Of a DNA stretch of 64,000 nt, positions 35,001-38,000 are shown piece after piece. Where the stretch lies: assembly GCF_057098645.1 (NCBI RefSeq), contig NZ_CM169472.1. One strand, written 5' to 3'. The position numbers were made by a program. Position 1 is the first letter of the stretch; every line of letters begins with the position of its first letter.

Positions 35001-38000
35001 TGATTTCTGAATGAAAGGAACTGATTTATGGGATTGTTTACGACCCGCCAGTTACTCGGTTATACCGAACAAAAAGTGAAATTTCGTGCGCTGTTTCTGG
35101 AGCTGTTTTTCCGCCGTACGGTGAATTTCCATACCGAAGAGGTGATGCTGGACAAAATTACCGGAAAAACGCCGGTGGCGGCCTATGTCTCCCCGGTTGT
35201 TGAAGGAAAAGTGCTGCGTCATCGCGGTGGTGAAACCCGCGTGTTACGTCCGGGCTACGTCAAGCCGAAACACGAATTTAATTACCAGCAGGCGGTTGAG
35301 CGTCTTCCCGGTGAAGATCCGGCTCAACTGAACGACCCGGCCTACCGTCGTCTGCGTATCATCACCGATAACCTCAAACAGGAAGAGCATGCCATTGTCC
35401 AGGTGGAAGAAATGCAGGCGGTGAATGCCGTGCTGTATGGCAAATACACCATGGAAGGGGATCAGTTTGATACTGTCGAGGTGGATTTTGGACGCTCTGA
35501 AGGAAATAACATTGAGCAGGCCGACGGTAAAAAATGGTCTGAGCAGGACCGTGATACGTTTGATCCGACGCATGATATTGACCTCTACTGCGATCAGGCC
35601 AGCGGTCTTGTGAATATTGCCATTATGGACGGTACTGTCTGGCGTCTGCTGAATGGTTTTAAGCTGTTCCGCGAAAAACTGGATACCCGTCGCGGCTCAA
35701 ATTCACAACTCGAAACGGCAGTGAAAGACCTGGGGGCGGTGGTGTCTTTCAAAGGGTATTACGGCGATCTGGCCATTGTGGTGGCGAAAACGTCTTATGT
35801 GGCAGAGGACGGTACCGAAAAACGTTATCTGCCGGAGGGCACGCTGGTCCTGGGAAATACGGCTGCAGATGGGATCCGTTGTTACGGTGCCATTCAGGAT
35901 GCGCAGGCGTTGTCCGAAGGTGTGGTGGCTTCTTCCCGTTACCCGAAACACTGGCTGACCGTGGGCGATCCGGCCCGTGAATTTACCATGACGCAGTCCG
36001 CACCGCTGATGGTGCTGCCGGACCCGGATGAGTTTGTGGTGGTGCAGGTGAAATAATCCGTGAGCGGGGGCGAAATGCCCCCGTGTCTTTTTTCACAGGG
36101 GGCTGATATGGCAACAAAAGAAGAAAATCAGAAACGTCTTCGTCAACTGGCTGGCCTGCTGGGGCGCGAGGCGGATATGTCGGGGAGTGCTGCGGATATT
36201 GCGCAACGTGTGTCTGAGTGGGAAGAGGAGCTTGCTGCTTCCCGGGAGGGCATTATGCCTGGTGATGAGAGCGGGCCTGAGCAAAATCACACAGACGATG
36301 GTGAGCAGTTGCACAACACTGATGCTACGGATGATGTTAAAGCGGTCCGTGTGCGGAAATGCCTGCATGTGATGGGGTATTGCCCGGAGACAGGCCGTCC
36401 CGTTGAACTGACGTACCGGGGCATGCGTGTTCTGGTGCCATCACCACTGGCGACAGCCATGATACAGCACGGAACGGCTGAGCATGCGTGATTTTCAGAA
36501 TGCCTTTGATGCTGCCCTTGCCGGGGTGGACAGCACGATTGTTGAAGTGATGGGGCTCTGTGCGCAGTTCACCTCGGGGGCACAGTGTGGCAGCGAAGTT
36601 CAGGGGGTTTTTGACGATCAGCCGTTTGACCGGCAGATTGTTATTCCGGCGGTGGCATTCAGTGGCGCTAAGCATGAGAGAGAGCATACTGATATTTACT
36701 CCTCATGCCGTCTGATAGTGCGGAAAAACGGTGCTGAAATTTATAACCGTACCGCGCTGGATAATACGCTGATTTACAGTGGCGTTATTGATATGCCTGC
36801 CGGTCACGGTCACATGACGCTGGAGTTTTCGGTATCAGCATGGCTGGTGAATAACTGGTATCCCACAGCAAGTATCAGCGATTTGCTGGTTGTGGTGATG
36901 AAGAAAGCCACCGCAGGCATCAGTATCAGCTGAATTTTATAACCCATATACGGGCGCCAGAAATGGCGCCTTTTTTATTGCAGAAAAGCGAGAGGTAATT
37001 ATGCGTAAACTTTATGCCGCCATTTTGTCCGCAGCCATTTGTCTGGCCGTATCCGGTGCGCCTGCATGGGCGTCTGAACATCAGTCCACGCTGAGCGCGG
37101 GGTATCTTCATGTCTCGACGAACGTTCCTGGCAGCGATGAACTGAACGGGATTAACGTGAAATACCGTTATGAGTTTACGGACACTCTGGGAATGGTGAC
37201 GTCATTCAGCTATGCAGGAGACAAGAATCGCCAGCTGACCCGTTACAGCGATACCCGCTGGCATGAAGATTCCGTGCGTAACCGCTGGTTCAGCGTGATG
37301 GCGGGGCCGTCTGTGCGCGTGAATGAATTGTTCAGCGCGTATGCGATGGCGGGTGTGTCTTACAGCCGTGTGTCGACTTTCTCCGGAGATTATCTGCAGG
37401 TGACCGACAACAAGGGGAAAACGCATGATGTGCTGACCGGAAGTGATGACGGTCGCCACAGCAACACGTCTCTGGCGTGGGGAGCTGGCGTGCAGTTTAA
37501 CCCGACCGAATCCGTGGCCATTGATATTGCTTATGAAGGCTCCGGCAGTGGCGACTGGCGCACTGACGGTTTCATCGTGGGTGTCGGTTATAAGTTCTGA
37601 TTAGCCAGGTAACACAGTGTTATGACAGCCCGCCGGTTCAGGCGGGCTTTTTTGTGGGGTGAATATGGCAGTAAAGATTTCAGGTGTACTGAAAGACGGC
37701 ACAGGAAAACCGGTAGAGAACTGCACCATTCAACTGAAAGCCAGACGGACCAGCAGCACGGTGGTGGTGAACACGGTGGCCTCTGAAAATCCGGATGAAG
37801 CCGGTCGTTACAGCATGGACGTTGAGTACGGTCAGTACAGCGTCATTCTGTTGGTGGAGGGCTTCCCGCCGTCACATGCCGGGACCATCACCGTGTATGA
37901 AGATTCTCAACCCGGTACGCTGAATGATTTTCTCGGTGCCATGTCGGAGGATGACGTCCGGCCGGAGGCACTGCGCCGTTTTGAACTGATGGTGGAAGAG

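Follow-up and report, generated by a model that had tools for sequence, protein, structure and literature searches.

Phage lambda (NC_001416) carries its late genes in the order nu1-A-W-B-C-D-E-FI-FII...J-lom-stf, and its host-specificity protein J has a receptor-binding domain (RBD) which works at the tip of the J fibre in trimeric form (PMC11101478). Defective prophages are known from enterohaemorrhagic Escherichia coli (EHEC), where the O157:H7 strain Sakai has a 'defective prophage pool' (Asadulghani et al. 2009, as cited in PMC7067040), and the conserved prophages of O145:H28 have been said in general terms to carry deletions of various lengths (PMC7067040). Here we analysed 64,000 nucleotides of contig NZ_CM169472.1 (assembly GCF_057098645.1; hereafter the window), which hold a prophage with the lambda gene order. 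The open reading frame (ORF) at 36484-36933 in this prophage had been proposed, in a reading made without database searches (the sequence-only reading), to be a fusion of FII with sequence at the position of J. Our results lead to the conclusion, to which we give a probability of about 0.9, that this 149-amino acid (aa) ORF is the scar of one ~11.1-kb deletion in a lambda-type prophage and most likely non-functional.

The two halves of ORF 36484-36933

The ORF lies on the plus strand and has the proposed translation. It is a chimera of the FII start and the C-terminal end of J, and its parts are as follows.

36484..36933, plus strand: chimeric FII'-'J ORF, ATG start, 149 aa (ORF call, tblastn, Pfam, PDB)
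36484..36619, plus strand: FII 5' fragment, codons 1-45 of 117 and the first base of codon 46
36612..36619, plus strand: deletion junction, an 8-bp microhomology, TGACGATC, common to the FII and J parents (three-way alignments)
36620..36933, plus strand: J 3' fragment, the last 104 codons and the stop, corresponding to J 1055-1158 of strain OkiPb01716 (L007) and approximately to lambda J 1027-1132

The ATG of the ORF overlaps the stop codon of the preceding head gene, FI (ATGCGTGA; context …GAGCATGCGTGA…). Over residues 1-45, identity to FII of the intact prophage of strain 2013C-3342 (L006; tblastn, 36484-36618) is 100%, and the DNA from 36484 to 36619 is 100% identical to FII in three relatives (L003, L006 and L007), with the first mismatch at 36620. 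The switch that had been placed near 36619 is thus located at 36619/36620. Lambda FII is more distant, with 56% identity between its residues 3-45 and the N-terminal part of the chimera, and residues 1-46 of the chimera align with residues 1-46 of the gpFII structure 1k0h (E 2e-8). The Pfam family PF05354 (Phage_attach) gave no match to the chimera at E<=0.01, whereas full-length FII of OkiPb01716 matched it over profile positions 3-96 of 99 (E 6e-18). By these comparisons the chimera is classed as a fragment of a gpFII family member and not as a member itself, the full domain of ~117 aa being absent.

The 3' part had been assigned to J from synteny only; this identity is now confirmed by direct alignment and by Pfam and PDB matches. 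Residues 42-149 of the chimera are 98% identical to residues 1050-1157 of the J (host-specificity) protein of the Stx phage Stx2a_1447 (tblastn, window 36607-36930), and the J part is read in the native frame of J. The DNA of this fragment is 98.4% identical to that of OkiPb01716. Residues 36-149 match the family PF12421 (Ig_GpJ_C) over profile positions 21-135 of 135 (E 1.3e-31), with a score of 109.9 bits against a cut-off of 26.2. Additionally, the chimera matches residues 1018-1131 of the lambda J chain 8iyk (E 9e-17), and the PDB matches of the J part as a group, which comprise lambda J 8iyk and 8xcj and the related J 9wca, range from E 9e-17 to 2e-34. The fragment thus contains most of the C-terminal Ig-like RBD. 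With only 37.5% identity between the chimera RBD and that of lambda J, the receptor specificity of the two probably differs.

PF12421, clipped at its N-terminus but with ~85% of the RBD profile kept, is the only J-specific domain of the chimera. Intact J of OkiPb01716 (1158 aa) has six J-specific domain families and four weaker generic matches in Pfam. The J-specific set consists of FNIII-A_GpJ, the Phage-tail_3 hub, Ig_J, Ig_J_second, the Phage_Tail_Tip fibre and the C-terminal Ig_GpJ_C, in proteins of ~1130-1160 aa. The profile match, the native J frame and the position upstream of lom place the 3' part as a gpJ C-terminal RBD, and the full gpJ architecture is absent from the chimera. The distance from the stop of the chimera to the start of lom is 67 nt (36934-37000). 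The corresponding gap between J and lom is 66 nt in two intact relatives, 67 nt in OkiPb01716 and 61 nt in lambda, in keeping with the resemblance to the J-lom spacing noted before.

Extent, junction and distribution of the deletion

An orthologous prophage of OkiPb01716, also located at the ybhC/ybhB-bioA site, provides a direct measure of the deletion. The window is 99.3% identical to this prophage up to 36619 and 98.4% identical from 36605 onward. In OkiPb01716 the two flanks are collinear and are separated by 11,113 bp (L007 4356-15468), an interval whose annotation starts with the 3' part of FII, goes on through Z, U, V, G, T, H (the tape measure gene), M, L, K and I, and ends ~1054 codons into gpJ. 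The orthologous prophages have a full-length FII of 117 aa. Measured against 2013C-3342, which has a sodC insert before J, the deletion is 11,732 bp, and in lambda coordinates it is ~10.8 kb. The sequence-only reading had proposed a single deletion that begins inside FII and ends close to the 3' end of J. These alignments support it, while the proposed size of 9-10 kb was too low.

The missing genes are not found elsewhere in the window. We compared the protein sets of lambda, 2013C-3342 and Stx2a_1447 with the whole 64 kb by tblastn (E<=1e-3), and none of the three tail sets gave a match for Z, U, V, G, T, H, M, L, K or I or for the corresponding Stx2a_1447 proteins, as had been claimed. The deletion removed the 3' 60% of FII, all ten of these genes and the 5' 91% of J, to leave an ORF that runs from the FII start codon through to the J stop codon. 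Nothing that we found contradicts the deletion itself.

A check for microhomology near 36619 had been suggested, and the junction does bear one. In three-way alignments the window does not depart from the FII parent until after 36619 and already tracks the J parent from 36612 on, so that the 8 bp TGACGATC belong to both. They lie inside a 14/15 match, GGGTTT[T/A]TGACGATC, at 36605-36619; the sequence GGTTTTTGACGATCAGCCGTTTGACC forms the centre of the 40-mer that spans the junction. For every left-side relative in the phage and E. coli collections, the match ends at 36619. The junction has no extra sequence, and the two parents account for the window fully. Microhomology of at least 8 bp arose in 0.03% of 200,000 simulated random junctions (P ~0.0003; same 11.5-kb segment). 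The shared sequence has the same codon phase in both genes, within GVFDD in FII and RVYDD in J, and the fusion is therefore in frame.

The 8 bp occur once at the junction, and no insertion sequence (IS) or site-specific recombination site lies there, which marks the event as a probable microhomology-mediated (illegitimate) deletion. From this signature we infer that recombination occurred between the 8 bp in FII codons 43-46 and in J codons ~1052-1055, and would have proceeded by replication slippage or RecA-independent joining.

The junction is present in 25 of 5,426 complete E. coli genomes. Five of them have no serotype label, and the remainder are all O145. Carriers include ST32 strains and the ST6130 strain RM13516 (sequence types, ST, assigned from PMC7067040). 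Since both ST32 and ST6130 strains have the junction, the deletion predates diversification of the sampled lineage and is old within it. The exact 149-aa protein is found on 464 contigs, and a variant differing by one residue on a further 58. Its occurrence in 25 complete genomes and on 464 contigs argues that the junction is not an assembly artefact.

The 149-aa protein has been recorded under the names hypothetical protein, Fibronectin type III domain-containing protein and, in strain RM13514, Phage tail fiber protein. The members of its protein cluster that we read are all named E. coli, and most are partial fragments ended by contig ends. In the annotation of the NCBI Prokaryotic Genome Annotation Pipeline (PGAP), the J part stands as an incomplete "phage tail tip protein" without its N-terminus and, in some genomes, the FII part as an incomplete "head-tail joining protein" without its C-terminus. 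Decay of this kind is ordinary and is already captured by PGAP as a pseudogene annotation. The main texts of the O145:H28 genomics papers PMC3893438 and PMC7067040 mention neither ybhC/ybhB, espJ and cif nor this prophage as defective, and speak of deletions in general terms only. In the O145:H28 prophage literature examined the FII'-'J junction is undescribed, and we found it as a RefSeq pseudogene annotation alone.

Function of the chimera and alternative explanations

The product of the chimera would consist of 45 of the 117 FII residues followed by an N-terminally clipped J RBD, with the first ~20 profile positions gone. It would lack the J hub, the FNIII domains, the helical shaft and the beta-prism, which are the parts for trimerising and for anchoring to the tail (PMC11101478). 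Because these parts of J are absent and FII is mostly gone, the product is most likely a non-functional relic. Translation could occur if the late operon is transcribed, as the start is still coupled to FI.

Three points weigh against the conclusion that the ORF is the scar of a single deletion without function. Nested successive deletions may have given the identical final junction, and a single step is not provable. The chimeric ORF is intact, in frame and coupled to FI, with most of the RBD profile kept. Finally, it is conserved across the lineage, with at most one substitution among the variants seen.

A quite unlikely alternative is that several events produced the junction, either as nested deletions or as a deletion combined with replacement of J-lom-stf from another lambdoid prophage. 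The genomic setting would allow this. O145:H28 genomes contain 12-20 mostly lambdoid prophages, among which replacements and inter-prophage recombination are documented (PMC7067040), and a 1.2-kb query across the locus matches 9-13 places in each listed junction-bearing genome. Furthermore, the identity to OkiPb01716 is slightly unequal on the two sides (99.3% on the left flank and 98.4% on the right), and the C-terminal alleles of J are mosaic, with J of 2013C-3342 only 48% and that of Stx2a_1447 98% identical in this part. Against this history, both flanks occur in collinear order, at 98-99% identity, in a single reference prophage at the same site, the junction bears the signature of a single microhomology join, and a search of 5,426 complete genomes turned up no intermediate form. 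A single event is thus the simplest reading, because the collinear flanks of one same-site reference and one clean microhomology join account for it.

It is very unlikely that the chimera, expressed from a residual late operon, acts in trans on lambdoid phages, by means of the FII N-terminus against head-tail joining or of the RBD against tail-tip assembly, or that its DNA together with lom-stf is a selected cassette for swapping host range. We regard as extremely unlikely the related proposal that the in-frame chimera was selected as a functional protein, a cytoplasmic J-RBD or FII N-terminal fragment that hinders competing lambdoid phages in joining heads to tails or in assembling the tail tip, or as a patch of DNA homology for host-range exchange. 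In its favour, the reading frame is open and translationally coupled to FI, retains PF12421 positions 21-135 of 135 and is essentially invariant on 464 + 58 contigs. However, the phase of the microhomology accounts for the in-frame join, which had a prior chance of 1/3 in any case, and conservation is of little weight here, as the lineage is too young for it to indicate selection. A selection analysis of the chimera would likewise be uninformative: the variants differ by at most one residue, and what separates it from J alleles is older than the deletion. The trimerising beta-prism and the rest of J are missing, only 45 of 117 FII residues remain, and there is no signal peptide context, which puts a surface receptor out of reach. 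In addition, ~4.5 kb of IS elements part the late operon from the Q region.

The last explanation would make the 149-aa protein a complete representative of a separate head-completion family, with the tail genes of the element elsewhere. It is excluded by 100% identity to FII for exactly 45 residues followed by 98% identity to the C-terminus of a 1157-aa J in the native J frame, by the full-length 117-aa FII of the orthologous prophages and by a protein cluster in which the members read are all named E. coli and are mostly contig-end fragments.

The surrounding prophage and its known relatives

The scar lies in a prophage between ybhC, at the window start, and ybhB-bioA, which follow espJ. Its int (629-1696) is 99% identical to lambda Int. 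By integrase and position it is placed as a lambda-type prophage at the lambda attB position in an E. coli O145:H28-type chromosome. The features around the scar are as follows.

6180-6238, minus strand: lambda cIII thermoregulator element (Rfam)
9576-10888, minus strand: IS3-family element at the cro-cII-O position, with an ALIL frameshift pseudoknot at 10434-10550
25745-25867, minus strand: isrC Hfq-binding small RNA (Rfam), in an IS-rich segment upstream of the holin gene
28903..36491, plus strand: head module nu1, A, W, B, C/nu3, D, E, FI, phage-21/lambda type, intact
36108-36491, plus strand: FI, last gene of the head module
36952..36980, plus strand: putative terminator-like hairpin within the 67 nt between J and lom, GGGCGCC-AGAAA-TGGCGCCT and then a T-run (consensus scan)
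37001..37600, plus strand: lom, Ail/Lom outer-membrane protein, full length, 199 aa
37665..38879, plus strand: stf N-terminal/collagen-like part, 406-aa ORF
38881..39150, plus strand: gene for the tail fibre C-terminal domain (ORF and tblastn)
39259-40589: complete IS2, 1331 bp, 99.5% identical to an annotated IS2 of Stx2a_1447, directly after the nleH start codon
41222-41875, minus strand: espJ, sole survivor of the effector cluster
51858-52002, plus strand: Moco riboswitch upstream of moaA, in the chromosomal flank (Rfam)

Upstream of the scar the head genes nu1-FI are complete, as had been stated. All gave full-length tblastn alignments, at 97-100% identity to 2013C-3342 and 29-66% to lambda, and the DNA of the module is 92-96% identical to phage 21 and PhiR12 phages. 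The gene for the terminase large subunit, A (29384-31312), is intact at 642 aa and 99.4% identical to an intact relative. In strain RM13514, gene A is frameshifted according to RefSeq and int is interrupted by IS600; int of the window is free of IS600. In these two genes the window strain's copy is less rearranged than that of RM13514.

Downstream, Lom is 98% identical to its counterparts in 2013C-3342 and Stx2a_1447 and 45% identical to lambda Lom over its full length, and the side tail fibre genes are 90-91% identical to those of relatives over full length (tblastn). The stf ORF has 406 aa compared to 437 aa in relatives, a difference that falls within the collagen-like Gly-X-Y repeat region; this repeat region is also the source of spurious antisense self-matches. 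A promoter scan detected no sigma-70-like promoter in 36000-37700, and Rfam and tRNA scans gave no match in or near the chimeric ORF.

The sequence-only reading had described lom, stf and the effector locus as intact. This description holds for lom and stf, which are full length. It fails for the effector locus, which carries the IS2 copy at 39259-40589 and retains only espJ. After IS2 the window rejoins the OkiPb01716 prophage at its position 21918, and 3,711 bp are absent relative to the orthologous prophages and to RM13514. The loss takes in nleH and cif together with a tail-fibre-assembly remnant and a DUF1076/NleG-like gene, and it extends into the start of a hypothetical gene.

The loss of ori and cro was correctly noted: cro, cII and O residues 1-167 have no match in the window. 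The ori iterons of lambda lie within the N-terminal coding part of O. The cI gene (8825-11262 region) is heteroimmune, with 33% identity to lambda cI, and is followed by the IS3-family element that stands in place of the missing genes and then by O residues 168-299. Because cro, cII and the N-terminus of O with the ori iterons are absent, the prophage is unable to replicate.

Two inverted copies of one IS3-family element (9576-10888 and 21380-25340) flank the O'-P-ren-nin-Q-LpxR segment. The DNA between both copies is reversed in RM13514 and has the normal lambdoid orientation in the window. The reversal is consistent with an IS-mediated inversion, which would uncouple the Q region from the late genes in that strain. 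The second copy is split by a ~2.6-kb insert (22197-24834) with ORFs for an IstA-like transposase (548 aa, minus strand) and for an IstB-like ATP-binding helper (332 aa); by eye it looks like an IS21-family element, and it is unmatched in the aligned part of the RM13514 locus (L008). In total, ~4.5 kb of IS sequences, including the split IS3-family copy and IS fragments, lie between the Q region and the lysis and head genes. Between the nin region and Q, a gene for an LpxR-family lipid A deacylase lies on the opposite strand; it maps to 15000-16500 of the window, as judged from L008 24928-25887. This cargo gene ('moron') is also present in relatives such as 2013C-3342.

We rejected the idea that the element is a phage satellite (P4-like or a phage-inducible chromosomal island, PICI), given its complete lambda/21-type head module and its missing O residues 1-167 and replication origin. 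The absence of tail genes is not a satellite trait, because it is explained by the deletion relative to an orthologous full prophage. The prophage is unable to make tails or complete head-tail connectors. Heads, if made, would not be completable, because FII is lost and no tails come from this element. The earlier suggestion that the prophage could at best make tailless heads is thus right with respect to tails and perhaps optimistic with respect to heads, given the destroyed FII, the missing ori and the ~4.5 kb of IS sequence after the Q region.

The prophage persists as a carrier of lom, stf and espJ. It is an effector-carrying EHEC O145:H28 prophage that can build neither tails nor head-tail connectors, and therefore lom, stf and espJ could be mobile only if other resident lambdoid prophages recombined with it or complemented it. 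The importance of the chimera beyond correct annotation is slight. The junction is a clean textbook case of an in-frame microhomology deletion and could be used as a lineage marker for O145:H28.

The closest relatives are the intact orthologous prophages of OkiPb01716, 13E0767 and enteropathogenic E. coli O127:H6 E2348/69, which share the integration site of the window. Their head module is 99.3% identical to that of the window, and the J 3' end, lom and stf are 98.4% identical. In the complete-genome collection, the highest-ranking match to the window has 90% coverage at 99.3% identity and departs from it in IS content and in the nleH-cif region. The nleH-cif-espJ cargo layout of the orthologous prophages is also alike, although these prophages keep nleH and cif as well as the 11.1-kb FII-J segment, both of which the window lacks. 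Lambda is alike in another portion of the genome, with int at 99% and exo, bet, gam, N, P, ren and the nin genes at 92-99% identity, and the fold family of the J C-terminal RBD is common to both. Unlike lambda, the window has phage-21-like head genes (29-66% aa identity) and a heteroimmune cI (33%), and it has no tail module. Among the defective lambdoid prophages of EHEC, those of the O157:H7 Sakai pool and of O145:H28 (Nakamura et al. 2020, PMC7067040) are likewise lambda-like, with type III secretion system effectors downstream of the tail-fibre genes. As in the window, these prophages have decayed via deletions and IS insertions and are fixed in a pathogenic lineage.

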